In this document: piece after piece, positions 1,626 through 52,855 of the stretch
How the letters are laid out: every line of letters starts with the position of its first letter
Numbering within the stretch: the first letter of the stretch is position 1
Assembly (NCBI GenBank): GCA_951406725.2
Contig: OX597835.1
Span: 16,554,001 to 16,618,000 of the forward strand
DNA length: 64,000 nucleotides
Reading direction: 5' to 3'
Source of the DNA: Octopus vulgaris
Lineage: Eukaryota
Program-made: the position numbers and the translations under genes
The notes under the pieces: generated by a model
The model's input: the letters and a program-made list of their open reading frames with translations, nothing else
The model's database searches: none
Told to the model about the DNA's origin: nothing

Positions 1626-1763
1626 TTAGCTTTCAAGTTGCCTGTCAAACAAGTACTCGCCAAGACCACCACCAACACGTTTCAGGTTGGTAATGTGGTC
1701 GGACAGAACCTTGATGTCATCGACCTGTTCAGCGAGATATTCGCTTTCAATGAAGTCCATCAT
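1626..1763 (-). CDS. Ferritin A exon 4 (coding part, with TAA)
   Basis: Polypyrimidine tract and ctgcAG acceptor, translation [14 protein letters not shown]...[13 protein letters not shown]. Confidence 0.96.
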
Positions 1764-4700
1764 CTGCAGAGAGAGAAAGAAAAAGAAGTTTATTAAAAAA
1801 AAAAAACCCCAAAAATCTAGAGACAGACAGATCTACTGTATTTGATAACATGTAAGATGTACTTTTCCTTCCCAAGATATGTCTAAAAAAAATTCCCACA
1901 GGTGAAGTTGGGTCACCCATGATGAACTTTTAACTCTCTAGCATTTCAATGCCAGCATGGAAAGTGGATCTTAAATGATGATGATGACGACGATTATTCT
2001 GTCATAATTAATGCATATTTATTCACATTGTTTTGGATATAGGCGCAAGAGTGGCTGTGTGGTAAGTAGCTTGCTTACCAACCACATGGTTCCAGGTTCA
2101 TTCCCACTGCGTGGCACCTTGGGTAAGCGTCTTCTACTATAGCCTCGGGCCGACCAAAGACTTGTGAGTGGATTTGGTAGACAGAAACTGAAAGAAGCCC
2201 GTCGTATATGTGTGTGCCTGTGTTTGTCCCCACAACATCACTTGACAACTGATGGTGGTGTGTTTATGTCCCCATAACTTAGCAGTTCGGCAAAAGAGAT
2301 GACAGAATAAGTACTAAGCTTCCAAAGAATAAGTCATGGGGTCGATTTGCTTGACTAAAGGCAGTGCTCCAGCATGGCCGCAGTCAAATGACAACCAAGT
2401 AAAAGAGATTAATTATGCATTATCTTGTAGCTTTGAGATTTCAATGATGGGATTGTTTGTTTGTAGAGTGACATTGCAGGATAGGTGCAAGAGGCTGAAT
2501 CTAGCCAGTTTAAAACATAAGACAGAATATTTCGGCTGGTTCGAATGTTAAATGGTTAAGTGGCTCTGTTGGTTACGACGACGAGGGTTCCAGTTGATCC
2601 AATCAACAGAACAGCCTGCTCGTGAAATTAACATGCAAGTGGCCGAGTATTCCACAGACACGCATACCCATAACATGGTTCTCAAGAGGATTCAGCATGA
2701 CAAGGTTGGCCCTTTGAAATACAGACACAACTCATTTTTTGCCAACTGAGTGGACTGGAGCAACAAGAAATGTATTTTGCTGAATGACACAACATGCAGC
2801 CAGGTATTGAACTCATGCCCTTATGATCTTTAGCCTAATACCCTGACCACTTGCCTTCATAAGACTTTAATGAACTAAAAACGTTTCCCCCCCCCCCCTG
2901 ATCATATGCTGTTGAAATTGGAGTGTCTTATATACCCTTGCATTGTTTATGCCATCAAGTATGGTCAGTTACAACAAGCTGCCACCCCAGAAATGACCAT
3001 CTTGTCTCTTCGGTATGTTTGTTTTGTTGTTGTTTGTTCCTTCTCGAGCCATGCCTGGCTCATAAGGGCTGGTTTCCTGGTCTGTCGCAGGAAAGGAGAC
3101 AACCCCTTGTTCATGTATTATTTGTTTCCTAAGAGCTTCATAGATGTAAGATCCAGACAATTTTGAGTTACGAAAGATAGTAGTGTTTCTTGCCTGCATG
3201 GGAAAGTGGAAACTAAATAATATGTATTTCTTTATTACCCACAAGGGGCTAAACACAGAGGGGACAAACAAGGACAGACAAACGAACCAAGTCGATTATA
3301 TCAACCCCAGTGCGTAACTGGTACTTATTTAATCGACCCTGAAAGGATGAAAGGCGAAGTCGACCTCAGCGGAATTTGAACTCAGAACGTAACGGCAGAC
3401 GAAATACAACTACGTATTTCGCCCGGCGTGCTAACGATTCTGCCAGCTCACCGCCTAAATAATATGGTCATGCACATACACCTGCACAAACACATACAAC
3501 ACACATCCTTTTGAATATGTGTGGTTTCCACTAAAACTTTTCTGAAAGAGAGAGAGAGAGAAATGGGGGGTGGGGTTATATATTTTCTGTATTGCAAGTA
3601 AGATAAAAATAAATTACCTGGGCGTCGTTATGACTATCAGCTATCTTGTGCAGTTCCAGAAGGGATCCGTTGACCTTCTTTTCCAGAGCAAGAGCTGCTT
3701 CCATGGCGTCCAGAGCTGTTCCCCAATCATCATTATCAGGTTTCTGAGAAAAAAATTAGAGCAACAAAAACTTCGTTAATTTTGACAGTGCAAAACAAAA
3801 AAAAAAACCCACCACTCCATTCACCCCCATTTCTACCACTTATTTCCCACAGGTCCTTATGCAGTAGTGAGGAGTAGAGATTACTTATCTCCGTTAAAAC
3901 AATCCAACAAAATAGTGGCCTAGTGGTTAAGGCTGTTGCACTTGCAATCACCAGATCGTAGGTTTGATTCCCTGACTGGGCAGCGCATTGCGTTCTTCAG
4001 CAAAACACTTTTATTTCTTGTTGTTCAAGTCCCCACTTTCAATCGGGGTGGGGGTTGACCTGCTTGCCTAGCCAGCACGGTGGCATCATCCAAAGGCTAA
4101 AGCAATGCAAAGTGCACTGTGATCAGCGATGTGTAACACCTGATAGTCCAGTTGGTCATGTGAGATAGGTTTGGCATATATTACCTTTATTAAATAATAT
4201 ACATACATATATATAGCTCTACAATTATATTTAAAATTTATTTATTAACGACAGAGGCAGTAATAATGAGAGGTAATATTTATCCCCACTTAAACGTAAA
4301 TGTTCAGTTAGAACAAACTATACTGTGGTAGATACCATGAGAGAATCTCTCTTATTGGCTTTTGGTGCAAAAATGCACTTTTTGTTTAAAGATAAACACC
4401 CATATTTAACTGGGGATAAATATTATTTCTCAATAATGTTCACATATATATATATGTATATATATATATCATCATCGTTTAGCGTCTGCTTTCCATGCTA
4501 GCATGGGTTGGACGGTTCAACTGGGGTCTGGGAAGCCAGAAGGCTGCACCAGGCCCAGTCTGATATGGCAATGTTTCTACGGCTGGATGCCCTTCCTAAC
4601 GCCAACCACTCCGTGAGTGTAGTGGGTGCTTTTACGTGCCAGACAAGGCTAGCAAACATCCACGATCGGATGGTGCTTTTTATGTGCCACCATATTCTAT

Positions 4701-5613
4701 GTTCTAAGCTGATATCAATTATTTTCCTGTACATACATAAATATATACACACATGTATGCCCGTCATTGGTTGGTAGTCAGTATTGGCTTGCTTATTATA
4801 CCAACTGTAAGCTGGAGGTTTAGCAAAAAAGAGACAGATAATACTAGACTTCAATATTGTATTTGAAAAATTCAGTCCTGCTCTGCAGCACTTTGAGCAA
4901 ATGTCTTCTACTTATAGCCTTGGGTTGACCAAAGCCTTGCGAGTAGATTTGGTGGATGGAAACTGAAATAAGCCTTTCATATACACGTGTAGCTGTATCT
5001 TTGTCCTGACATCAAGTGATGGTTGTAAATAAGCACCACTGTCATACAAGCGAGGTTGTTAGTTTCCAGTCATCTGTGGAAAACATGTCCAAATATTGTT
5101 AGGAAACCGGTGAGGGTTGGGACAGGGAGAGCTTCCAGCCATAGAAAATCTACCTCAACAAATCACCATCGGAGCCAAGTAAGCATGAAAAAGCAGACAT
5201 TAAATAATGATTATTATTATTATTATTATTATTATTACTACTAACCTCAACTTGCTTCAGAAGGATTCTTCCACCCCTCTTGTTCTGATATTTCATGAAC
5301 TTCTCAGCATGTTCTTTCTCTTCTTCAGATCTTTTCTGAAAGAATTTGTACAACCCTTTCAGGGCGACATCATCGCGATCAAAGTAAAATGCCTGAAAAG
5401 TTAAAGAAACAACAATAAATTAATCAAATGGAGATTCCTTTTACGTATTTCAACATAATTTTCTTCAACTCTTCCGGTGCCAACCTGCCTAAAACCAAAC
5501 CTGAGAATTCAAAGTGGTTGTGTTTAGATTTAAAAATTCAGTTACCAGGGAATAGAATACATGCTAAAAATAAGAAACCATTTCTAAAACATCTAAGAAT
5601 CTTGTAGAGGAAC

Positions 5614-5647
<34 letters not shown>

Positions 5648-8600
5648 AGATTTATTACTTGAATTTACAAAGAATTTCCTGCGAGTTGCTTTGCCTTGGT
5701 GCATTCTTGTAAGTAAAAGTGAGTTTAGCTTTCATGGTGCCTGTCAAACAAGTACTCACCAAAACCACTGCCAACAGGTTACAGGTTCAATCTCACTGCA
5801 TGGTACCTTGGCCAAGGGTCTATGCATCCTCTACTATAGCTTTGGAGCAACCCAAGCCTTTAAACAGATTTGGTAGAGAGAAATTGAAAAAAGTCCATTG
5901 TGTATAGTTGTGTCTGTTTATGTCTCGACAGTGTGATACTTGTATGACAGTAAATGAGTTTCACTGTCATACAAGCGGCACCATTCGTTTCTAATTTTGG
6001 CACAAAGCCAGCAATTTCAAAAGGGAGAGATAAGCTGATTACATTGGTACCAGTGCTCAACTGGTATTTATTTTATTGAACCTGAACATATGAAAGGCAG
6101 CATCGACCCTGGCGAAATTTGAACTTGATGGATGAAATACTACAAAGCATAGAAGGGACAAACAAGGAAAAAGGTATTAAGTCGATTACATCGACCCCAG
6201 TGCACAATTGGTACTTAATTTATCGACCCCGAAAGGATGAAAGGCAAAGTCGACCTCGGCGGAATTCACGATCCATTTAAGAAGCTTTGTTTTTACCAGC
6301 AAGAATAGTGTTGTTTTACATCATAAGAATTTAGAAACTTCAAGAGAACATGAAATAAACGGTTTTTACTAGTGGAACTCAAATTAGGTAAAACTATAAA
6401 TAATTGCTTCTACTACAGGCACATGGCTAGAATTTTTTTTGAGGTGGGGAGGAGGAGGGAGAAAACTAGCCAGTTCCATTGACTCCAGTGTCCAAACTGG
6501 TATTTATCTCACTGATGCTCAAAGGATGAAAAGCAAAGTTTAGCCTCAGTTAAATTTGAACTCAGAACATAGAGACGAAATGCTGCCAAGCATGTGCCAA
6601 CAGTCCTGCCAGTTCACTAGCATGTAAACCCTTTGAAACCTGCCCGACATGTTTACAGACGATAAAGGGTTTGTGTACCCTGGGCAGCCATTGGCCTTTC
6701 TAGTCAAAAGTTGTTTTAAAAAAAATCCAATATTTAACCCTTTTGTTATCTTCCTTCTGTTGAAATACATGCGATTTACTTTTGTTATTCACTTGTTTTA
6801 GTCACCTTGACCATGGCCATGCTGGAGCACTCCTTTGAGAGGCTTTTTTTTAAGTCGAAGAAAGTGATCCAAGAATATTTAAAAAAAAAAAGTCTAATAC
6901 TTACTCTATCAGTCTTCTTTTGCCAAATTGCTAATAATAATAATTCTTTCTACTGTAGACACAAAGCCTCAGATTAGGGGATTAGTCAATTACATCAACC
7001 CCAGTGTCTCACTGGTATTTAATTTATCAACCCTAAAAGGATGAAAGGCAAAGTCGACCTCAGCAGAATTTGAACTCATAACGCAGTGATAGGTGAAATA
7101 CCGCTAAGCATTTCGTCCAGTGCGCCAACGGTTCTGCCAGTTTGCTGTCTTAATGACAATAATAGTAATTATTACCATACACAAATAGGAGTGAGAGAAG
7201 AAGATTCTAACAGTACAGAGGTTCGCTGAGACACAACTAGACTGATATCACAACACTTTAATTACCAGAGAAGTTCAATTTGGTAGCAAGGCTATATAAT
7301 TATATACCTAACTTCTATACAATTCATTCATATATACTCTAGTTTCTCCTTCCCAAGATCACTCTTTTATGTTAAAATAGAGACATAAATCTGTGGCTGA
7401 ATGGCAATCAGAACTGCCAAAGTAACAAAGCTTAAACTTGATTAATGTGTAACATATAGGCAAATCATTGTATGAAGGTCAAGTGCAACAGGAGTGTATA
7501 TAGAAAATACTATAGTGTCTACCGTGTAGGTCATACACACGTAACATTAATAATAATAAAGAGAATGGAAATTTTTCACATTCATAAATTTTATTTAAAA
7601 CTGTTTAATAAAATTTATGGATGTGAAAAATCTCTAGTCTTCTTCCTATTAATCATCATCATCATTTAGCGTCCACTTTCCATGCTAGCATGGGTTGGAC
7701 GGTTCAGCTGGGGTCTGGGAAACCAGAAGGCTGCACCAGGCCCAGTCTGATCTGGCAATGTTTCTACGGCTGGATGCCCTTCCTAACGCCAACCACTCCG
7801 TGAGTGTAGTGGGTGATTTTTACGTGCCACCGACACAGGTGCCTGACGGGGCTGGCAAATGTTCACGGTCGGATGGTGCATTTTACGTGCCACCGGTACG
7901 GGGGCCAGGCGAGGCTGGCAATGGCCACGATCAGATGGTGCTTTTTACCTGCCACCGGCACGGAGGCCCATCGGGGTGGCGCTGGCAACGGCCACGTTTG
8001 GACGGTTCGCTTACGTGCCACCGGCACTGGTATCACAGCTGCAATTTCCATTGTTATTAATTATTCTATGGAACATATGCGGCCCTGAACAAGACATATG
8101 GAATTACCCAACAAGAGAAGTTACCAGTGCTCAACAACTCATTGTTAGCTTGAATACTACATATGGACTGCTGTGGCTAGCCAGCATCCGAAACCAATTT
8201 GAGAGAAAATACGGTAACCACTAGGATAATATATCCTCTTAAACTCATTTGATTTATATCGTAAGTACTGTCATACCAACACAGTGCAAGTCAAGGATAA
8301 ATGTATAAATATGGCAGCTGTGGTTGTGGGTTCAGTCCTGCTATGTGGCACCTTGGGCAAGTGTCCTCTACTATATTGTTGGGCTGACCGAAGTGGATTT
8401 GGTAGAAGGGAACTAAAAGAAGCCTGTCGTTATGAGTGCATGCATGTGTGAGCCTGTGTCCCATAGTGGTTCATCAGAAAGGAACTGATAGAATAAGCAC
8501 CAGGAAGAAAAAAAAGACCAATTTATTTTCATTTAAAAACCTTTAAGGTGATGCTCCAGGGTGGCCTCAATCCAATGACTGAAACAAGGTTAAAAAAAAA

Positions 8601-11306
8601 AAACCCTATATAAATACACACACACACACACACAGTAATGGAGTTCATTATCTTATACACACATACATATATAGGCAAAGTGAGTTTAGAGCTGTATCCT
8701 ACACCAGTTTCACATAACCAGCCCCAGCCCAAACAAAAGTACCTTGAATTGTAAGGCAACCTGCTGTGCCTGAGGAGACCTATTGAGTCAAGTACATCAA
8801 CATCAAAATGAAAATCAAATGGAAATTGTAGTTGTGATACTCGTGACGGCAGCACGTAAAAAGAACTATCCGAATGTGGCCGATGCCAGTGCTGCCTTGA
8901 CTGGCTTCCGTCACCAACCGATCATGGCCCTTGCGAGCCGCCTCTGGCATGTAAAAAGCACCCACGACACTCAGAGTGGTTGGCGTTTGGAAAGGCATCC
9001 AGCTGTAGAAACACTGCCAGATCAGACTGGAACCTTATGCAGCCTCCTGGCTTCCCAGACCCCGGTTGAACCATCCAACCCATGCTAGCATGGAAAACAG
9101 ATGTTAAACGATGATGATGATATGTGTGTGTGTGTGTGTAAAGTACTAAAAACAAAGACTGTAAATCAAGAATAGATAATCAAAATCAATTTAATGACTG
9201 GCATCCGTGCCAGCAAAGAGCACCATACGAGTGTGATCATTGACAGAGAGGCTATTCAAGTATGATCGTTACCAGCGTCGCCTTACTGGCACTTATGCCT
9301 GTGCTAGTAGGGTGCCAAGAGCACCATCCAAGTGTGATCGTTGCCAGAGCAGCCAACTGGCTTCCGTACCCATGGCACGTAAAAGGGCACCATTCGAGTG
9401 GGATCGTTACCAAAGTCGCTTCACTGACACTTGCAAAAAGATTCGAGCGAGGACATTGCCAGTACCGCCTGACTGGCCCCTGTGTCGGTGGCACGTAAAA
9501 AGCACCCACTACACTCTTGGAGTGGTTGGCGTTAGGAAGGGCATCCAGCTGTAGAAACTCTGCCAGATCAAGATTGGAGCCTGGTGCAGCCATCTGGTTC
9601 GCCAGCCCTCAGTCAAATCGTCCAACCCATGCTAGCATGGAAAGCAGACGTTAAACGATGATGATGATGATGATGGTGATGATTTAATGTCTGAAAACAG
9701 ACATTAAATGATATTTTATGTATTTCGTTTTGTAACAAAGCAACTTGTGAATTCATTCTCTGCTGCAGGTAGCCAACAAGGCCTTAAAGTCATTGACACT
9801 CATAGAAACACTTAGAGCCACACAAGGCCGTATTTCTACGTCGTTTTATTGCTTGCTTTCCCCCACTGAAGTGTCTATGTTCTATTACAACAAACTATAC
9901 AGTAATTAGTCCTTCTGGTAACAGGAGACACTGAACATGTGTGATGACTGACCCTGCTGGACTAATGAAAAACAGACTGCTAGCCATACACCACACTAAA
10001 AGAATGTACTGATATATCCACAATACAACACTTAACAGCTATTACTCTAGCTGTGACCTCAATACGTGTGCTTCGCAACAGAACTTTCCAGAAATTTAAA
10101 TACGAATTAAGCAGTCCTATATCCTAAAGTGTTAATGGATTAGACAACAGATACTGAAAGCTTAGTTGATTTCTGAATGCCACTCTGCAATTCTGATAAT
10201 GTTTTTTTAAAAATTTATATTCCCTCAACTTTTTTAATTAGTTCTTGCTAAACTAAAAAGCTGTTTATTAATTGATTGCTGCTAAAACTAACGAGCTGTA
10301 ATTTGATAGGCTTGTTTGTCATGGAGAGATCAGCATTCTGACATTTCTCCTTCAATAAAAGGTTTGCCTCAAAATGCCAGGTTTTTCCATGTCCTTCCCC
10401 ACTTGATTGCAGTTGCTGATGCAAGATGGCACAAGATTTCAAATCCATAACTAGTTTGGCCTGGGTTGCAATCAATAATATCCAACAGAGATCTATTAAC
10501 AGATTCTGGCAAATAGACAAACATATCCACTTCATCAATATCACCATTCTAATATCCAATTTTCCATGCTACCTCCGAGACTCCAGTATGTACAGCATAG
10601 AAGTCAAACTTCTATGTGGTTGTTTAATCTACAAGAAACAGCAGCTAAATCTCATCCTAACATCTTGAAGTCCGAAGTAAACTGCCTAAACGAATAGGAC
10701 CGATCATGAAGAAAATCTTTTAATCACTGATATGTCAGCTTGATTAGGGGCTGGCCTAGGGACAACAACAGTGTCATGCAGGGCCCATATTTTAACATAT
10801 AAATTTAAGGACACCCAGTCTAGTGCCATAAAACTATGTGTAAAATTACAAGTCGCAGAGGAACTAGAAAGGCCACTGGTGCTCCCCGCCCCTCCAGAGA
10901 AGATTGAAAAGGAAAAAGAAAAATACCACGCTCCCTCTCACTGCCCCGACTCAATTATACAATATGGTTACTCACTCCCATCATGGAATATATAAATAAT
11001 TGTTTACAGCAGTAATATGCCCAATAATATATTGTTGCTGAGAAACAACACAGCCCACCCCACCAATCACCTCTCCAGTCTCTGTCCATACGTTATATAA
11101 TTCAAGGCCGAAGCCAGGCATTGTTCAGAATTAGGTTAATAAATGCCATATGTAAAGAGATCTCCCCCTCTCTATACACAGATCTATCTATCTAAATAAT
11201 AGCAGCAGTTAACTATATTTTATATAAACATATTGTAATAACCAAGAACTGAATGATTTTGGCTTCAAGCCATAATTTTGTCAAGTGATATATATGTATA
11301 TATGTA

Positions 11307-11339
<33 letters not shown>

Positions 11340-14300
11340 TTATTTATTTCTTTACTACCCACAAAGGGCTAAACACAGAGGGGACAAACAAGGAATGACA
11401 AACGGATTAAGTCGATTATATCGACCCCAGTGCGAAACTGGTACTTTATTTATCGACCCCGAAAGGATGAAAGGCAAAGTCGACCTCGGCAGAATTTGAA
11501 CTCAGAATGTAACGACAGACGAAATACCTATTTCTTTACTACCCACAAGGGGCTAAACACAGAGAGGACAAACAAGGCAAGACAAACGGATTAAGTCGAT
11601 TATATCGACCCCAGTGCGAAATTGGTACTTTATTTATCGACCCCGAAAGGATGAAAGGCAAAGTCGACCTCGGTGGAATTTGAACTCAGAACGTAACGAC
11701 AGACGAAATACTGCAAAGCATTTCGCCCAGCTCGCAAATATATATATATATATATATCCATCCACAGAGAAAGGAAAGTTTGTTAAATGCTGTGTCCAGA
11801 GGAAGGAAAATTAAATGTTTAAAAAATAAAAGTTCCAATTAGTATCAACCATTTGACCGTTAGGTCATTGACACCATTTTCAAGAATTAGAATCTAGCAC
11901 AGAACTTATCAAAAACTGGAAGCAGAATTTGCATATAACCACCTCCCCATTTTAAAAATAAAGAATGGATTTGTGTGTGTGAGCGAGGGAAGTCAGCAGT
12001 TACTACTGCATGTTGGTAACATGTGAGAGACATATGCAATCAACAGTTGAGCATTTATCATTAAGTCACTCTACACCAACGGACTGACTCAATGCTACAC
12101 TCCCATCCCACCCCACCAATTTAAAATGAGTGTCAGGTTTTACGACCAACGTAATTAGCTAAGAGCCAATAGCTACGTTCGCAAGTTCTCAACACTTCTA
12201 ACCAACTGCAATGTGGTGTATGGCTGTCACAATCAGTATTAAATGAAGTATTTCAAACTACTACAAACATCAGCTACATAACTTTTAAAATATTCGGTCT
12301 AAATAAGACAGGAAGGTCATGGACGGAACATCTCACACCATAGGTTTGTTTGTTGCATCAGAACTTGCCTAGGATAAAGCATCACAAATTTTGTTGGTCC
12401 CATATATGTTGAGAAGGTGAGGTTTCATAGGAACAGAGCCCTTAAGCCAACAAAGATTTTATGTTAGATGTACAATAAGATTAGACGATTAGACCCCTCA
12501 AAATTTAGACCATGTAGTTGTTAAGTGGATTTTTTAAAAAACTATACAGCCTTGCTTTTAATTATCAAATAAAACTGTCCACGGGATAGGGATGAACAGC
12601 ACAACTCAACAGTTTTCTTTCTTACGTAAGTTTAATACCAAAGCAATCACGAACATAGTACAGTGGTAACCCCCTTTGTGCATCTTGTGTATCACATGTG
12701 ATAAATAACACATATTTCTCTGGCATCCATATATGATGCATATCAATTTTTTTTCTCCGACTATAAGAATAACTTGGGACTTATGAAAAAAAAGGGAAGC
12801 TTTTTAGCTCTCAGAAGAAAAGGAACAGGAGCTGCATCTGAACAGAATCAGCAGATGTTTAGGACAAATTTATTAAAATGCTTTGGAGAGGCAAAAAGAG
12901 TCGATGAGTAGAAAGGTAATGGATGGTCGAAGCACTCCATCGGTTACGACGATGAGAGTTCCGGTTGATCCGAATCAACGGAACAGCCTGCTTGTGAAAT
13001 TAACGTGTAAGTGGCTGAGCACTCCACAGACACGTGTACCCTTAACGCAGTTCTCGGGGATATTCAGCGTGACACAGAGAGTGACAAGGCCAGCCCTTTG
13101 AAATACAGGTACAACAGAAACAGGAAGTAAGAGTGAGAGAAAGTTGTGGTGAAAGAGTACAGCAGGGATCACCACCATCCCCTGCCGGAGCCTCGTGGAG
13201 CTTTAGGTGTTTTCGCTCAATAAACACTCACAACGCCCGATCTGGGAATCGAAACCGCGATCCTATGACCGCTGCCCTAACCACTGGGCCATTGCGTCTC
13301 CACTAGAAAGGTAATACAGGAAACACAAAAGATATTTTGTAAGTCCACATGTTTTTATAACTTTTAGCATTTAAACTGGCCACATATCTCGTCAAATACC
13401 TTGTTTTATGTTTTAACGAGCCAAATTGGACCTCACACACCTACCTAGAGTTATTCCAACAATAACCAATCCCATCATTGAAATATCAAAGCTATGAGAC
13501 AATCATCATCATCATCGTTTAACGTCCATTCTCCATGCTAGCATGGGTTGGACGGTTCGACCGGGGATCTGGGAAGCCAGAAGGCTGCACGGCTCCAGTC
13601 TTATTTGGCAATGTTTCTACAGCTGGATGCCCTTCCTAACGCCAACCACTCCGTGAGTGTAGTGGGTGCTTTTTATGTGCCAGGCGAGGCTGGCAACGGC
13701 CACGGTCGGATTGGTGTATTTTATGTGCTACCGGCACGGAAGCCAGTCGAGGCGGCGCTGGCATCGGCTACGAGTTGGATAGTGCAATGTATGATTAATT
13801 AAAAATAATGTGGATAAATAAGGATTACATTTGACAGTAATCTGAATGCTAAAAGGTTAATGCCACTAAATATAATTAATCTCTCTTTTTTATATTAAAG
13901 ATCTTTTACTGTCTTGAAAGAGTCATCATACCAATATTATTAACACAAGCGCCGGTTCAGTTCCACTTCTTTATTATTAGTCTTTTACCTTAGTAACAAA
14001 AGGTGATAAGTCATTGTTTACCGATTCCACACATACTTAACAGGCTTGTTTACAATGGTACTGGACTTTTACCAAAAGACCTGTAGAAACAGCTAGAAAA
14101 AAGTTTGACTGAAACAAATTTAACATATAGCACAAGTAACCAAAAGTAATTTTACCATATGTTGGAATTTGGAATTAAAAAAAACCCAGTTTCATCATCA
14201 TCATCGTTTAACGTCCGTTCTCCATGCTAGCATGGGTTGGACAGTTTGACCGGGGATCTGGGAAGCCAGAAGGCTGCACCAGGCTCCAGTCTTATCTGGC

Positions 14301-17300
14301 AATGTTTCTTCAGCTGGATGCCCTTCCTAACGCCAACCACTCCATGAGTGTAGTGGGTGCTTTTTACGTGCCACCTGCACAGGTGCCAGGCGAGGCTGGC
14401 AACGGCCACGGTCGGATTGGTGTATTTTACGTGCCACCGGCAGTTTGTTTGTTATAATTATAATGTTAGGGGAGACTGAATGGTAAGCAGTTTGCTTTTC
14501 AACCACAGTGATCCAGGTTCAGCCCCACTGAGTGGCACTTTGGGAAATTGCCTTCTACTATAGCTCTAGGTTGACCAAAGCTTTGCGAGTAGATTTGGCC
14601 AGTGGAAACCACAGATGCCTGCCAATATATCTATCTGTATCTTTGCACTTATCTCCCACCATTGCTTGACGATCAGTGTTGGTTTGCTTACATCCTTGTA
14701 ACTTAGCGCTTCACCAAAAGACCGACAGGATTAAAAGAAAAAGTACTAGGGTCGATTTGTTTGACTAAACCCTTCAAAGTAGCGTCCCTGTATGGCTGCA
14801 GTCTAATGACTAAGACAAGTAAAGAAAGAAAGAAAAGAAGTCAGTCAAAAAAAGACACTTAAAGGAAATGTTACTTTTCGTATAGACATCATTGGTGCCT
14901 GATGTTCTGAGTTCAAATCAGATAACAGCCCACTTTACTATTTATTAGCCTGGGGTAGAATTAACCAATTGCCCTACTCTCTTAAAAAAAAAAGAAAGAA
15001 AAAGCTTTGTAAGTTCGAAATATAGGTGATGCGTCAAGCAAAACAGTCATGTGCAGTGTTTAGTATATTGTGATGTTCTACATGCAAATCCTGCCAACCC
15101 GCTAAATCTTAAATTTTGCCCTTCGTCCTGTGATTGTTGATACAGCAAATATTTGCCTATGATATGATCAATATATAGTTTAAATCCAAGTCACAATTTA
15201 TATATATATATATATATATTATATATAGTGGCCCAAAAGTACGTTTAGACTTTAAATTCCTTTTAAAACATTTAATTACATTTAAATTTCTATCTTACAA
15301 TTAACTAAATTAGCATAGAATATATCTATCTATATATATAAAATACAAAATGGGACAAGAACGCAAAACATCTGGATAGCTAGGTGATACAAAGAAATCA
15401 AGGACGGGTCATTCGAAACTCTCTATCTTCAGTCAAGCACCAGGATATCCTCACAATTTCGGCTGATAATCTGGTGCTTTGTATCGCCTATCTGGATGTT
15501 TTGTAGTTCCTTCTTGTATCACCTAGCTATCCGGATGTTTTGCGTTCTTGTCCCATTTTGTATTATATACACAAACACACAATACTATCAACCCACATCT
15601 GTTTTCCAATCACATCACAATGGAAAAATCTGGAACACTGAAGTTAAATATAAAGCACGTGCGCATTTGCAAGTGAAAAGAAAACAAGAATGACCTTTAA
15701 AAGGAAAGGAGCAAGGACAGAAGTAAGAGGGGGGAAAAAATAAACTACACAAAGGGAGGAGGTCATATATTGTTGTGGGAATTGCTTTCTACGTTTCTTA
15801 CCAGTCAACATGAACAACTCAGCAATCTTTTTGGCAACGGATGTTTAATTGATATGAGGCATAATGAGAATCGCATATCAACCAAGTTTATTTATACTAG
15901 CTTTATTTTATACACACCAACGTGTGTGTTTGTTATGTAACGATTTATACACAAACTAGTTGAATATGAGACTTAAAGGATTGCAAATTTGAAGGGGGGT
16001 ACCAACCAAATTTATAAATTTTGGCAAAGAAAAAAAGAAGTCGACAGTGACTTTCATTCAAGTTTCGGCATACATCAGTTTCATGATGGTTCGTAAACCG
16101 AGACATCGAGATCACTATCAACTTTGTCTTTAAATACACACACACACGAGTGGTGCAAAAGTCTCACATCAGTAAAATATAAACATTTATATCACATTTG
16201 CAAAAAAATTACAACAGATTGTTATTTTACTGGTGCGCGACTTTTGCTCCCCCATCTCCAGTATGTATGTATATGTGTATATATATGAGAGAGGTAGTGA
16301 GGGGGCATGTGTTAAGTAAATAGTAAATAAATGCTATATAATTAATAATAGCTCTTTAATTGCTTATAAATGCATTTTGTTTACTGTGTATATATATATA
16401 TATATATATATACGCGTGTGTATAAATCAATGATGGGTGTAACGCACTCGTGCCTGTCGAAAACGGACGAATTCACCTTTACATCATGAATCATATATTT
16501 TCATTAGAACTGAACAGATTCAGACCTCAAGCAGGTTCTTGTAACCTCCATATACAAAAAAGAAGGTTCGTGTACATAAAGAAATATAGACACGAACGAT
16601 ATTTCATTTACCCGTCAACGAGTAGTTTACACGTGCGTGTATATACATATATTTATACATGTATGTGTGTGTATATATGTCGTATTTCCTGCAGCATCGT
16701 TAATGCGTAAATTACGTGTGGTTATATATTATTATACACACATGTACACATATATAGTGTACCTCATATACGCGTTAATGCGTAAATTGTGAGTGTAGGA
16801 AGGTACATATCTACATCTATCTATCTATCTATATATATAGCATCTTATGTTGCATCGTTGCGGTTATATATTATTATACACACATGTACACATATATAGT
16901 GTACCTCATATACGCGTTAATGCGTAAACTGTGTGTGTAGGAAGGTACATATCTACATCTATCTTATCTATCTATATTTATTTATATATATATATATATA
17001 TAGCATCTTATGTTGCATCGTTAAAGTATAGATTGCGACTGTGTATAAATAAATCTATATACACACACATATATATACTGCTTCTCCAGGAAGCACTGTT
17101 AATGCGCAAATTACACACACATATACACATCCTAAACGTGTTGATTGCTTATGTATGTACATAGATCGATACACAGACATACATACTGCATCTTATATAA
17201 TTAATTACTGCGTAGATCACATGCGTGTGAACATATCAATATATACACGCATACACATATATATATATTGCCTTACATGGAGTACCACTGATGTGTAGAT

Positions 17301-19302
17301 TGCGCGCATGTATGTATATTTTGAGAGAGCTAACTGAATACTACATACATATCATTGCTATTATGTTAAACCGTTGTATGTCCAAATTGGGCCAAAATGC
17401 GTTTTTCTTTTTTTGGGGTTTACAATATTCAATTTTGCTTGCAATAGCTGGTTGCTTTGGTCAAACTATCGTATCTCCAACTGCCTCAGATGCCAACGGT
17501 TTGGCATTTTCCAAAGGTGTGTAGTAAATGGCACATACGACAGGTGCAACGATATGTACATTCACCATTCATAATTTTTATTCAAGAGTACATTATCATG
17601 TATATATATATATATTTACACACACACACATATATATATCAGGTAAGGTGAAAAGATTATCTATTCACAAGATAAGCTTAACGAATACGTGAAGTAGTTG
17701 ACGAGTTGAAATGGAAATTAAGTGAAATATAGAGATAAGGTCGACAAACAGATAACCCTGAGATACGATTCGGGTTGATATATAAATAGAAGACAGGTTG
17801 TTGATATATATATATATATGAGAGAGAGGGTGCTCTCCACACAGACTTTGTTTCCTCATAACTTACAGAAAAATTGATGTTTGATGTAGACTAAAGCATG
17901 TTTGTAGGAAATTTCTTTCTCATAAAGTTATGTGGAAACAACGTCAGAGGAGGACGGGGTGCACAATTGTGTAGTTATGCATATATATTGCACACACATC
18001 TCTTTTTTTGGCATCGTTGCATGGTGAGAATAGAATTACAAATAATGTAGGGCATAGTGCACCAAAAACAGCAATTTGTATGGTTGGCTATATTTCAGCA
18101 TCGCAGGTCAACTATTCTGCAAGAAGAAGAATAAAACAATAAATACTCGAGTACGTACTCGTACCCGTTGTGATTTTTCGGTTGAGGAAACTCCAAAGGA
18201 GAGCTGAACAGCCGAAGGTCCTCAGATAAGGAACCTATCTCTTCATGTAAGGGTTTTGGCCCTCAACTCTTAAAAGCAGAAAAATCGCAAGGGTGTGCTT
18301 GTGTGCGCGCGCCAAAAAAACACCTCCAGTACCAAGTTTTCTTTCTCTTTTTGCCAGAATCGTAACCAAAGTCACTCGAAACAGACATTTTCTAAAAGAG
18401 ACTACAGCTTTGGTGTTCAAGATAATTTCGGACTCTATTCTACAGGAATGCCATATAATATATATTATTGGTAGTGATGGTGACTGGGGGAAGAGGAGGT
18501 GGAAGATATAGCTGTGTAATAGAATAGTATAGGGTGTATGAGGGGTAGATTGAGGAGGAGTGAAAGCAACGACAGAGGAACAGAGAGAATAGACTGAGAA
18601 GGTTAATAGTCGGGTGGAGAGAAATAGATAATGGCGGGAGAAGATCAAGAATAGACAGAAAGATGTCTTATTTAGCACACCACACTTATATTTATATTTA
18701 TCTGTAGACACACACGCATATATGTATATAAATATATTTAGGTATACCTCAACTTACGCTGTTTCGAGTTACGTTTTTTTTTCTCTCGAATAACGTCGTC
18801 TTTATAAGAAACCAATGGAAAAAAATAAACCAACTGCACTCTCAATCTCAGTGATCATGTTTAAAAACATTTTTATTTATATCTGATCTATATCTAAATT
18901 TTGTTCTATCCTCCTCTTTCTCTCTCTCCTCACACAAATATACACGCAGAGGCATACCTCAACTTACGTCGGTAATTATTTCCAAACATTTTATATTTTT
19001 GAAAGCACATAAAAACCGATAATGAAGTGGAAAATCAAATGCAATACATGTGAAAATACGGAGAAACCATCTATTAAAAACGGAGATAAGCTAATAGAGG
19101 CTTTTTTAAAAATAGATTTTTCGTGTGAGGCTGTTTGTCCGCATCAAGTCGCATGGCTTGGAGGAAATAATTACCGACGTAAGTTGAGGTATGCCTCTGC
19201 GTGTATATTTGTGTGAGGGGAGAGAGCGAGAGGAGGATAGAATAAAATTTAGATATAGATCAGGTGTGAGAGATAACGATGGTAGATAAGGGTTAGAGAG
19301 AA

Positions 19303-19336
<34 letters not shown>

Positions 19337-19461
19337 AATATATCGCTTTTAGCAATGAGTGGGTGTAGGAACTGACAAATTCATTGATCTCATATCTATA
19401 AAATAGTGTGAGTGCGCGTAAAAGCGAGTCTTTGATATCCGCATAGTCGAGTGTGCGCGTG

Positions 19462-19493
<32 letters not shown>

Positions 19494-19988
19494 GAGAGAT
19501 AAATAAAAGAGAGTATCCTTGAGTAAAAGCACAGTTCGACCAATTTGAAATCAGCGATCTTTTTCGTTACATAATCTACTACACACTGTCACATAATAGC
19601 AGATGCTTGTGTACAAAAAGCACCCAATATGTTATTATATATTAAATTGCGCACTAAGCAACTCTGAGAAGGTAGGTAATTGGTTAAACGCATCTGTACT
19701 GAAACGGAAGGGAAAAAAAAAACCTCAAAGCATTTAACATTTATATATATATATGATGATTTCATTTGAATGAAACAGTTCTAGTCCTGTAGAAGCTCCT
19801 TCTACAAAATAAATTAATTTACTCTGCTATGTATTGAGTACCTTATTTACTGTGGTTAACCCCGACTCAACCCGGGACCTACATATAAATATATATGTGT
19901 GTGTATATATATTGTTCAATATCCTTTTTGTTTTCTTTAAGGTTGTTGCTCTGACACGCATCTTCTTTCATAGTGTGTCTAGCAACCA

Positions 19989-20034
<46 letters not shown>

Positions 20035-20399
20035 TGGCTGCTAGACACACTATGAAAGCAGATGCGTGTCAGAGCAACAACCTTAAAGAATACAAAAAGG
20101 ATATTGAACAATATATAATAATGGACTGATGTCGAAGCAAAATATATTCCTAACATGGAAAGCAATATATATATACGTTAAATCAAGACTAGTAATTAAT
20201 TCAAAAGTAGTAATTTAGAAACGGATTATAGTAATTAAATAATAAAGCAAGGTAATTAGTAACTAATTAAGAGTGGTTTTGTGTTCTTACTTACCATGGA
20301 TTGGTAGACATAGGAAGCATACATTTCCATGTTAATTTGGCGATTGATGCCAGCTTCGGAATCCTCGTGGAAATTTTGGCGTGGGTTACTGTCGCACAT
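1626..20399 (-). CDS. FTH1: Ferritin A (soma/heavy-M type), spliced CDS join(20399-20295, 5392-5246, 3743-3618, 1763-1626), 171 aa
   Basis: Manual splicing with GT-AG phase-0 introns gives [35 protein letters not shown]|[49 protein letters not shown]|[42 protein letters not shown]|[45 protein letters not shown]. Ferroxidase residues E25, Y32, E59, E60, H63, E105 and Q139 are present. No signal peptide. The symbol denotes homology only. Confidence 0.95.
3618..3743 (-). CDS. Ferritin A exon 3 (126 nt)
   Basis: tttctcAG acceptor, translation KPDNDDWG...[17 protein letters not shown] donor. Confidence 0.96.
5246..5392 (-). CDS. Ferritin A exon 2 (147 nt)
   Basis: ttttcAG acceptor, translation [11 protein letters not shown]...[19 protein letters not shown] donor. 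Overlaps ORF 5150..5353. Confidence 0.96.
5535..5787 (-). pseudogene. Decayed duplicate of the ferritin A exon 4 3' half plus 3'UTR, inside intron 1
   Basis: Collinear with about 1445-1688. For example CTTGGTGCATTCTTGTAAGTAAAAGTGAGTTTAGCTTTCA is shared exactly. Translates as [19 protein letters not shown]. Confidence 0.9.
7545..10829 (-). pseudogene. Probable decayed cGAS-like receptor (Mab-21/cGLR nucleotidyltransferase) pseudogene interrupted by SINEs
   Basis: Frameshifted motifs in the expected order on the minus strand: TG(S)..[18 protein letters not shown] (10590-10510), YGLV.AL(K)C and CWLPAA/RE*IH (9832-9744), Y..KVLLF..WLCE (8756-8709), [18 protein letters not shown] (8120-8060). Pattern recognition only, no search run. 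Confidence 0.5.
7654..8053 (-). mobile_element. SINE/LINE-tail family 3 (GCGTTAGGAAGGGCATCCAGC... ending in (GAT)n)
   Basis: Repeated at about 4469-4690, 8784-9120, 9160-9680, 13504-13785, 14193-14440, 57620-57897 and 62081-62280. Internal tandem TTTTACGTGCCACC units and a short TTAATA TSD. Confidence 0.8.
12921..13303 (-). mobile_element. tRNA-derived SINE family 4 with a 12-bp TSD
   Basis: Head GTGGAGACGCAATGGCCCAGTGGTTAGG...GGTTTCGATTCC. TAGAAAGGTAAT at 12909-12920 and 13304-13315. Confidence 0.85.
15342..15564. repeat. Fold-back with about 51-bp arms, inserted in (TA)n (Penelope-like)
   Basis: 15342-15392 is the reverse complement of 15514-15564 with 1 mismatch. Confidence 0.75.
18883..19263. 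repeat. Inverted repeat with about 100-bp arms (DNA-transposon-derived)
   Basis: 18883-18983 pairs with 19163-19263 and contains a Tc1/pogo-like GGCATACCTCAACTTACG. Confidence 0.8.
19906..20117. repeat. Near-perfect palindrome with a (TA)n centre
   Basis: Arms of about 85 bp with 3 mismatches around a self-complementary TA tract. Confidence 0.9.
20295..20399 (-). CDS. Ferritin A exon 1 (coding part, 35 codons)
   Basis: ATG at 20399, translation [10 protein letters not shown]...YVYQSM, followed by a GTAAGT donor. Confidence 0.95.
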
Positions 20400-20692
20400 T
20401 TTTGTCGGTTTCTTGGTTCCTTAACTAATTCTTTGATTGAGAACACTTCGATCTCTTTTTTTACCTTAAATCGCTAGGATTCTAATAAAGGTGACGGCAA
20501 AAGTAATTAATGTTGGTTGATTGAAAAAACAAAATTTTAAATAAAAACTGCGATTATTTAAAATTAAGAACTTTTAAAAACTGGAAAACTGAAAAGTTAA
20601 TTTTCTTTTTTTTATATATATTTATATATAAAAAGGAAGGAAAAATAAGAATTATTAATTAAAAGCGTTTTGCAAAGTATGGTTAAGAATAT

Positions 20693-20720
20693 GTCCGTAC
20701 GTTCACTGACGCAGCTAGAC
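20693..20720 (-). promoter_or_regulatory. Iron-responsive element (IRE) in the ferritin A 5'UTR
   Basis: Sense RNA GUCU-AGC-UGCGU-CAGUGA-ACGUA-C-GGAC: CAGUGN loop, 5-bp upper stem, ferritin-type internal loop with bulged C. Lies about 10 nt from the predicted cap. Confidence 0.93.
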
Positions 20721-20751
20721 TATTTCTTATGCCGAGCTAACGCAACGGTGC

Positions 20752-20802
20752 TTTATATAGTCTGCAGATGCGGCTGGTCACGTGCTGGAAATTTCCGCCA
20801 AT
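20752..20802 (-). promoter_or_regulatory. Ferritin A core and proximal promoter: TATA (20752-20759), E-box CACGTG (20779-20784), kB-like GGAAATTTCC (20787-20796), CCAAT (20798-20802)
   Basis: TATATAAA lies about 32 nt upstream of the IRE. The other motifs are read directly in the next 45 nt upstream. Confidence 0.7.
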
Positions 20803-41089: not shown

Positions 41090-50676
<9,587 letters not shown>

Positions 50677-50785
50677 TGTGTTCTCACTGGAAATTTCTTG
50701 AGAATGCTATAGTTGAAGAATTTCAAAGCAACAGAAAAATTGATTGAAATCAATGCGTTTGGTTGTTTGGATTGTGTTAGAATTA

Positions 50786-50813
50786 GCCTGTACGTTCACT
50801 GGCGCAGCAAGAC
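50786..50813 (-). promoter_or_regulatory. IRE in the ferritin B 5'UTR, variant with C.A mismatch at the loop-closing pair
   Basis: Sense RNA GUCU-UGC-UGCGC-CAGUGA-ACGUA-C-AGGC. Confidence 0.88.
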
Positions 50814-50845
50814 TGACTCTAACTGTTCTACGGCAATGCCGCCCC

Positions 50846-50852
50846 TTATATA
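50846..50852 (-). promoter_or_regulatory. Ferritin B TATA box
   Basis: TATATAAG about 33 nt upstream of the IRE, nearly the same spacing as in gene A. Confidence 0.7.
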
Positions 50853-51867
50853 ACAACTGCAAGATAAACGATTCCATTGTTCTCTTTATCTAATTTTGTC
50901 AAAACTACTTGACTTTCGATTCTTCTAGTTCTTATCGAAGTGAAAAAAATTTCAAGAAACAAACAAACAATACAAGAAAAATCGTAAGATCAAAATGATA
51001 ACTGTAAGATTGGTGTAAATCTTTGGTATTATGCAATTAGGCAAAGAAATTACATAGATTATTAGACTTTATACTAATTGATTGTTCATTATCTTATCAG
51101 TACTACATGTTTTTTTAATATCAATTTATTTTCTCTGTATTCAAATATTTGATAATAAAACACTTAACGACAAACAATTAAGTAACTTTGTTTGTCATCA
51201 ATATTTTCTTCAGTTGTTTGTTGTATTGTATGTTTTCTAATTAACTCATAAACAATCTTAATTATTAAATGAACCTTATATAATTCTGGAACTAGTTGAA
51301 TTATCCAGAAATATTTAAGACAGGCTTATTTTTAACCCTTGAACCAGATTGAACCTTTGATGTGGTTGAGCAACCAGTCTTGACCAATCTAGATTCAGAG
51401 TGTAGGTTGTAGTGGTCATCCTTTCGGATACTGAATACAACATGGGGCTTGACTCCATCTGAGTGATTTTCCTGGGTCACCATTTCATCCTTGTATGCCA
51501 ATCCACCTCAAAGTTATCCATTTACAGCTGAATGACCCTGGAGCAATGTGAAATGGAAGTGTTTTGCTCAAGAACACAACACACCACCTGGTCAAGGAAT
51601 TGAAACCATGACCTTGAAAATGTGAGTGCAACACCCTAACCACCAGAGGCAGGTACCTGATATTGGTAGCATTAGTGCTAGGGTATTTAGAGCACCAGGC
51701 CAGCCCAGCCCTACAGTGCCTGTCCCCTTCTTCCAGTCCTTCAATGAGATACTCCCCACCCTGTTTCTCCAGTTTTATTTTGTGATCTCCTCCGACTATT
51801 ACTCTCATTGCATCAACTGGAAAATGCAAATGCAAAAATATAATTAACATACAAAGAAGTTAATTAT

Positions 51868-52855
51868 GAGCTATAGTTTTAAGATCATCTTAAATGTTAT
51901 GACTGATAGTTAAGATCACGCTATGATGTAAATGCTATCATCTCTAGTTAAGATCTATATACTATTTACTGATAGTTATGATGATTTTATGACCTATGTT
52001 ATGATCTATAGTTTTATGATCATGTTATGATATCTGTGTTATAATGTATAGTTTTAAGATCATGTTATGATATATGTTATTACTGATAGTTAAGATCATG
52101 CTATGATATAAATGCTATCATCCCTAGTTAAGATCTATATGCTATTTACTGATAATTATGATGATTTTATGACCTATGTTATGATCTATAGTTTTATGAT
52201 CATGTTATGATATCTGTGTTATAATCTATAGTTTTAAGATCATGTAATGATATAGGTTATTACTGATAGTTAAGATCATGCTATGATGTAAATGCTATCA
52301 TCTCTAGTTAAGATCTATATGCTATTTACTGATAATTATGATGATTTTATGACCTGTGTTATGATCTATAGTTTTATGATCCAGTTATGATCAACATGTT
52401 ATTATCTATAGTTTTAAGATCATGTTATGATATATGTTATTACTGATAGTTAAGATCATGCTATGATGTAAATGTTATCATCTCTAGTTAAGATTTATAT
52501 GCTATTTACTGATAGTTATGATGATTTTATGACCTGTGTTATTATCTATAGTTTTATGATCATGTTATGATATACATAATATTATCTATAGTTATGATCA
52601 TGTTATGATATCAATAGTTATTATAAATAGTTATGATCATGTTATGACCTAAATGTTAAAATCCATAATTTTGCGATCAAGTTATGATCTGTATATTATT
52701 ATCTATAGTTATGATCATGTTATGGTTATTACTGATAGTTAAGATCATGCTATGATGTAAATGCTATCATCTCTAGTTAAGATCTATATGCTATTTACTG
52801 ATAATTATGATGATTTTATAACCTGTGTTATGATCTATAGTTTTATGATCCAGTT
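51868..52855. repeat. 180-bp tandem satellite built from about 20-bp subrepeats
   Basis: ACTGATAGTTAAGATCA recurs at 51902, 52082, 52262 and 52442 (period exactly 180) and near 52731. Confidence 0.9.

Follow-up and report, generated by a model that had tools for sequence, protein, structure and literature searches.

The contact between an IRP and an IRE is made through C8 and the loop triplet A15-G16-U17, which are held in place by a helix of five base pairs, and the cross-loop pair C14-G18 rests on the pair N13-N20. Of the 38 rows of Table S1 in Volz 2021 (PMC8466369), 36 classic IREs were evaluated by eye, and every one of them has N13 paired with N20. For human FTL, single upper-stem changes found in hereditary hyperferritinaemia-cataract syndrome (HHCS) are described, in the portions of the two sources used here, as lowering IRP binding and de-repressing ferritin (PMC5740175, PMC3585816); the first source, citing earlier work, calls the top pair +38/+45 crucial, and according to the second, binding losses of 30-40% de-repress ferritin in people and cause disease. 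The upper-stem point mutations of HHCS in Table 2 of PMC12652614 lie at +34, +36, +37, +46, +47 and +49. These are rare disease alleles, whereas the octopus change described below is fixed in a duplicate gene.

In the ark clam, an SbFn probe carrying A19 binds IRP1 in an EMSA, and knockdown of IRP1 raised ferritin, as stated in the sections of PMC8947174 drawn on here. Another mollusc, a chiton, has an iron-gated and a proposed constitutive soma ferritin (isoforms 1 and 2), which arise from one gene by way of an alternative first exon that has no IRE, according to the corresponding part of PMC7850002; the octopus differs in having two genes with two hairpins. In the black soldier fly, the predicted IREs of the two ferritin genes Fer1HCH and Fer2LCH differ, as in octopus, in that one has a C-A mismatch where the other has a pair; unlike the octopus proteins, these are secreted heavy and light subunits of an insect, both proteins rise similarly with iron, and the part of the report available to us (PMC13646257) gives no position for the mismatch. 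The prediction program SIREs includes a Hao1-type class with a single upper-stem mismatch, for which, in the passages of PMC2896125 and PMC12230718 that state the rules, one mismatch at n13-n20 is permitted, as in octopus ferritin B; the mismatch in Hao1 is an A:A at n11-n22, however, and the class is a prediction rule and no proof of regulation (PMC2896125).

The window, by which is meant the whole stretch of 64,000 nucleotides of Octopus vulgaris DNA that was analyzed, lies on contig C22 of the 2.8-Gb genome and contains two intact ferritin genes, A and B, which form a head-to-tail tandem pair on the minus strand (Table 1). Each gene has four exons (start codons at 20399 in A and 50676 in B) and GT-AG introns at matching places. 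The predicted proteins are identical at 124 of 171 amino acids, and as 19 of the 37 four-fold sites differ between A and B, the duplication must be old. The PF00210 ferritin domain is recognized in both (45.2 bits in A and 41.7 bits in B, cut-off 24.5), and the ferroxidase residues E25, Y32, E59, E60, H63, E105 and Q139 as well as the channel residues H116, D129 and E132, in the numbering taken from the relevant part of PMC13026281, are complete in A and B. Exon 3 of A and exon 3 of B are each 100% identical to an Octopus vulgaris record named soma ferritin-like. The leaders, about 148 nt long in B and about 331 nt in A, contain no upstream ATG, and each holds a single cap-proximal IRE. Within the first intron of A, about 140 nt ahead of exon 2, there is a decayed copy of the 3' half of A exon 4 and of the 3' UTR (5787-5535, minus strand; 207 of 242 nt identical), which has acquired an AATAAA ahead of a T run and is likely a remnant of an earlier tandem copy. 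An AT-rich tandem repeat array, noticed by eye, occupies positions 51850-52850 of the window, about 1 kb upstream of the B TATA box. In the promoter of A (20800-20775, minus strand), a CACGTG and a GAAnnTTC are located at -54 and -65, respectively, relative to the inferred start; neither occurs within 2 kb in the B promoter. A single TGCRCNC, which we take to be metal-response-like, is present at -806 in the B promoter.

Table 1. Positions of features of the ferritin genes A and B in the window.
Feature	Position	Strand	Remarks
IRE of ferritin B	50786..50813	-	C8 = 50807; loop CAGUGA 50801-50796; UGC/C internal loop
IRE of ferritin A	20693..20720	-	C8 = 20714; U13-A20 paired (20709/20702); AGC/C internal loop
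TATA box of B	50845..50852	-	TATATAAG; 39 nt ahead of IRE
TATA box of A	20752..20759	-	TATATAAA; 39 nt ahead of IRE
Whole B hairpin with flanking stem	50776..50823	-	8 bp + C.A + lower stem; predicted fold
Whole A hairpin with 6-bp flanking stem	20683..20730	-	in register with that of B
Ferritin B coding exons	50676-50572, 43037-42891, 42138-42013, 41227-41090	-	171 aa; span 41090..50676; P0003
Ferritin A coding exons	20399-20295, 5392-5246, 3743-3618, 1763-1626	-	171 aa; span 1626..20399; P0005
TGACnnnGC overlapping A upper stem	20707..20715	+	by-product of IRE consensus; 17 found, 16.5 expected

Read on the minus strand, IRE A (20720-20693) consists of GUCU, AGC, UGCGU, CAGUGA, ACGUA, C and GGAC, and IRE B (50813-50786) of GUCU, UGC, UGCGC, CAGUGA, ACGUA, C and AGGC. 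Thus, as the initial annotation had claimed, the upper stem of A (UGCGU/ACGUA) closes the loop with U-A and that of B (UGCGC/ACGUA) with C.A, formed by N13 = C at 50802 and the opposite N20 = A at 50795. The letters given for the two internal loops were read correctly as well, the lower-stem differences do preserve pairing, as they are U-A/U.G swaps, and the distance from the first base of the TATA box to the first base of the IRE is indeed conserved. The further statement that the rest of the leaders is unalignable does not hold throughout. In a test against 2000 shuffles, the score of the 60 nt that follow the IRE was reached by 28 of them, a better alignment than expected from shuffling, and that of the 31 nt before the IRE by 125, a marginal result; the remaining leader, with 1653, shows no alignment beyond shuffles. 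The pattern GCTGCGYCAGTGAACGTAC has two matches in the 2.8-Gb genome, namely IRE A and IRE B, and its reversed control has none. With R1, a covariance model for which 15 other invertebrate ferritin IREs were used, A scores 45.8 bits and B 40.0 bits, the next best place in the window reaches 10.8 bits, and chance pattern matches score at most 28 bits, with the exception of one locus (L078) described below. Neither A nor B was matched by the Rfam IRE families at the gathering cut-off or at E<=10, and as IRE A, which is of the invertebrate consensus type, was missed too, the Rfam library is blind to this invertebrate subtype.

The canonical features against which both hairpins were compared are those set out in the part of Volz 2021 consulted (PMC8466369). 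IRE B lies on the sense strand in the 5' UTR of a metazoan iron gene and is cap-proximal with respect to the inferred cap. It keeps the contact bases with their spacing, that is C8, the triplet A15-G16-U17 (50800-50798) and the cross-loop bases C14 (50801) and G18 (50797), the pairing of which is not favoured by folding. Both IREs have A19 in place of the U/C expected at N19, a feature that does not discriminate between them; A19 occurs in 16% of the classic IREs of that same source (PMC8466369). The upper helix has five base pairs in A and four pairs plus C.A in B, and because this feature fails, B is filed as an IRE variant and not as a canonical IRE. The one-mismatch rules of SIREs (motif 1 loop, C8, no more than one mismatch and no more than two G.U), applied by hand, accommodate B with CAGUGA, C8, a mismatch at n13-n20 and a G.U at n10-n23. 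In the case of IRE A, the stretch of the core that runs from G7 through the lower stem is letter for letter the ark clam probe, so that the CAGUGA loop, C8 and the UGCGU/ACGUA stem are common to both; octopus B differs from it by C13 and a longer flank, and the clam study, in the part used, deals with one gene having an intact stem (PMC8947174). No published description of this octopus IRE was found in a literature search that covered few subscription papers, and no measurement of an N13-N20 mismatch was found in the accessible literature.

A metagenome scan in which N13 was left free yielded 101 loci, 25 of them with a ferritin frame downstream and 76 without. The 25 ferritin-linked invertebrate IREs had to match the other 17 fixed letters and are not all independent, as they come down to 21 distinct stretches of which some are nearly the same; all 25 have U at N13, in a U-A pair. 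Two loci, L020 and L054, equal the 28-nt core of B in all but N13, indicating that C13 is derived and that the lower stem of B is ordinary; in relation to the invertebrate consensus, the core of B has no change besides N13. Of the 24 loci in which the base is visible, 5 share the AGC loop of A. The side features that had been taken to tune the two elements differently, the AGC loop of A and the lower stem of B, are therefore ordinary variants among ferritin-linked IREs. Among the 76 loci lacking a ferritin frame, N13 is C in 40, none of which is a full IRE by score, and the best of these (L092, 21.5 bits) was rejected as a chance hit that falls on the end of an antisense reading frame. A full IRE with U13 and C23 was encountered at L078:98-145 (42.2 bits), with no ferritin frame within 600 nt. 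The absence of an N13-N20 mismatch from the 36 classic and the 25 invertebrate IREs points to selection against such a mismatch.

The initial annotation had asked for confirmation of the base in reads and in related species, and public contigs bear it out. Eight public runs were compared with B at the level of contigs, from which rare alleles drop out. In six of them, from six studies and with six organism labels, no letter other than C is found at 50802, and one of these six could be the source of the assembly. In X3, X5 and X8 the position is covered far from the contig end with no difference listed, and in X13, X18 and X10 pieces with zero other letters span it, that of X10 ending 3 letters off. 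The contigs of X13, X18 and X10 are spliced from exon 1 to exon 2, and therefore B is transcribed with the hairpin. The contig of X19 stops at 50787, short of the position. The eighth run, X20, comes from a diverged relative (about 10%, with 26 differences plus 2 gaps across 267 nt) and lists no difference in 50785-50813; as the list omits 6 of the 26 differences, which are near the ends, and the aligned part stops 36 letters away from 50802, the C is probably present in X20 too. For the C to stem from a faulty assembly or from a rare allele, the probability is practically nil given its presence in six runs from six studies, and a sequencing or assembly error is ruled out by the six concordant runs.

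When folded, the B hairpin reaches -15.4 kcal/mol (2 of 200 shuffles are as good) and that of A -11.1 kcal/mol; the flank of B is longer and its hairpin more stable overall. In the folding model, which represents neither C.A wobbles nor protein binding, the change at N13 costs B about 1.4 kcal/mol, the predicted B loop opens to eight bases, and C14-G18 forms in the free RNA with a probability of 0.12 in A and 0.00 in B. In every context length tried, the pairs N9-N12 of B form at 0.95-0.98 and C8 is unpaired at 0.98. A shifted register of B in which C13 pairs with G18 was discarded (probability <=0.01). In a 100-nt context, A has a competing fold and its IRE pairs form at about 0.44 at 37 C and at 0.02 at 18 C, and the B hairpin dominates its own ensemble better than that of A does. 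Given the greater stability of B and this competing fold of A, the tighter of the two elements is not necessarily A. In the flank stem common to A and B, the first bases pair with bases after the IRE, and its six pairs are in register, with one two-sided change (A-U versus U-A) and one one-sided change. When pairs were counted over 7 hairpins, no significant covariation emerged in the long flank (score equalled in 45 of 500 shuffles), so that it is the A/B comparison on which flank conservation rests. Cap sites placed about 28-29 nt after the TATA box would be at 20730 in A and 50824 in B. The B hairpin would then begin about 1 nt after the cap site and C8 would be at +17 in A and +18 in B, a cap-proximal placement that would explain the shared TATA-IRE spacing. 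One spliced B contig begins at 50820. The spliced RNA-library contig of X20 runs into the TATA box (50838-50849) with the same TATA-to-IRE length, and some X20 transcripts may start further upstream.

With respect to the evolution of B, its IRE is identical in close relatives. Over 109 nt, the leader in X20 differs from that of B by 14 substitutions and 2 gaps (about 13%), and the IRE part 50786-50806 by zero listed changes (Fisher p 0.07, or 0.05 with gaps; a single contig); the sole hairpin change, in the 3' flank stem, concerns an unpaired A at 50784. By this borderline and weak signal the B hairpin looks conserved rather than decaying. In a tree of 11 proteins, from which the divergent frame L104 (see below) and the last 12 residues of P0007 were excluded, A and B group with the ferritins of Argonauta and Enteroctopus in a single clade (support 100/99), in which the branch of B has a length of 0.41 compared with 0.016-0.049 for other octopod ferritins. 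An AU test on the order of duplication and speciation rejected neither A+B nor A+Argonauta+Enteroctopus (p-AU 0.24 and 0.27), and an earlier tree that included L104 was also undecided. Only 1 of 122 shared residues differs between B and an O. bimaculoides record, so the fast change of B is not recent. Of the two copies, B is the derived one both at the protein level and in its IRE.

The proposal of a two-gene system is too narrow, as the genome has a third four-exon soma-type ferritin in which no IRE was detected. Eight ferritin matches were obtained in a Pfam search of the genome. The third soma-type gene is located at C7:96.51-96.53 Mb (L124:7571 onward, and L126), and as R1 found no match in 60 kb around it, 37 kb of this upstream, it is likely IRE-less. 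It stands head-to-head with a frame starting MAFKFG, about 200 nt from the ferritin ATG, which is rich in S, T and A, has FG-like motifs and presumably resembles a nucleoporin. L104 (C15:66.289 Mb), an intronless divergent ferritin frame with 41-47% to A and B and no IRE model match nearby, is likely a retrogene, and four further divergent ferritin-like exon matches, three of them mutually similar, are on C14 (L108-L111). A gene for an IRP1/IRP2-like cytosolic aconitase is present at C18:65.19-65.21 Mb (L112, L115, L116, L118, L120). There is a second aconitase gene at C18:33.47-33.49 Mb, which by its motifs we take to be of the mitochondrial type.

Taken on sequence grounds, IRE B is a real, fixed and rare natural variant for which an effect is plausible. 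The likeliest reading, to which we give about an even chance, is that it is a weakened but still-working IRE on the faster-evolving duplicate, predicted to bind IRP1 more weakly and to be released at lower iron. The fixed U13C would open the pair beneath the loop and thereby lower IRP1 binding to B without abolishing it. It is established that an IRP bound to a cap-proximal IRE blocks translation when iron is low. In B, such a complex with IRP1 would keep ribosomes from loading, and as the floppier loop would cost binding energy, B would be released at lower iron and would be translated more strongly than A when iron is scarce. The leakier B is favoured because N13-N20 is paired in all classic and ferritin-linked invertebrate IREs compared, the top pair is described as crucial and mild losses of binding matter in vivo. 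The analogy to human FTL that had been drawn for B is valid insofar as upper-stem changes there cut IRP binding, but none is tabulated at +38/+45, and as the mutation table has no point mutation at the loop-closing pair, the analogy is indirect.

It is possible, although we doubt it, that the mismatch is tolerated, the C.A stacking as a wobble between G12-C21 and C14-G18, the longer flank compensating and the IRP1 contacts remaining intact, so that the change would be nearly neutral and A and B regulated about equally. For this speak the retention of all contact bases with their spacing, the greater stability of the B hairpin and its apparent conservation in X20, the lack of a pair-type preference at N13-N20, the mismatch allowed by SIREs, and the HHCS table with no point mutation at this pair. 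In the black soldier fly, moreover, Fer2LCH with its C-A mismatch IRE (score 7.5/8) goes up about 70% in protein with iron versus 75% for the heavy chain, although co-assembly may confound this comparison (PMC13646257, as far as the part available goes). What speaks against tolerance is that such a mismatch is missing from every classic row and invertebrate ferritin IRE compared and that binding losses as small as those named above already cause human disease. Alternatively, and improbably in our estimation, the IRE of B would be functionally dead and B constitutive, the hairpin being kept because the loss is recent or because it has another cap-proximal role. B lacks the five-pair upper helix that defines an IRE, its predicted loop widens to eight bases, its protein evolved fast after the duplication, and chitons have IRE-less ferritin forms, but decay should have hit the contact bases too, the core of B is otherwise unchanged from the invertebrate consensus, no core change is listed against X20 despite the leader divergence of about 13%, and a likely IRE-less ferritin is already in the genome. 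The HHCS table, the SIREs rule and the fly ferritin count against weakening, and this is why a tolerated mismatch and a dead IRE keep the standing given here.

The same base had also been said to remove an ARE-like TGACnnnGC from the opposite DNA strand. The motif does exist at 20707 on the plus strand of A, is missing in B and has no further match near either promoter; as a regulatory element, however, it was rejected, being a core-only match at chance frequency in the window (Table 1) that derives from the IRE consensus common to all 25 comparison IREs. The motif of A lacks both the flanking purine and the final A that belong to the fuller ARE consensus. That the base acts at the DNA level, its change leading to a different Nrf2-type transcriptional control of A and B, is thus scarcely credible. 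A selected C.A pair, braced by the extended cap-proximal stem, that retuned B to a lower iron threshold after an octopod-specific duplication is an unlikely extension of the weakened, still-working IRE; as part of it, a protonatable C.A+ wobble could make the repression of B pH-sensitive.

If such a retuning were true, octopus would have a three-step graded ferritin set, composed of a tight IRE A, IRE B and a likely IRE-less third gene, obtained by changing a single base in a pair that none of the functional IREs considered here has open. As graded IRE strength and IRE-less ferritin forms are already established, this would refine and not overturn the field. If B is weaker and yet selected, it would constitute a natural experiment on the one upper-stem pair that has no tabulated human point mutation, and would show in a simple way how one base of an RNA switch can retune a duplicate gene.
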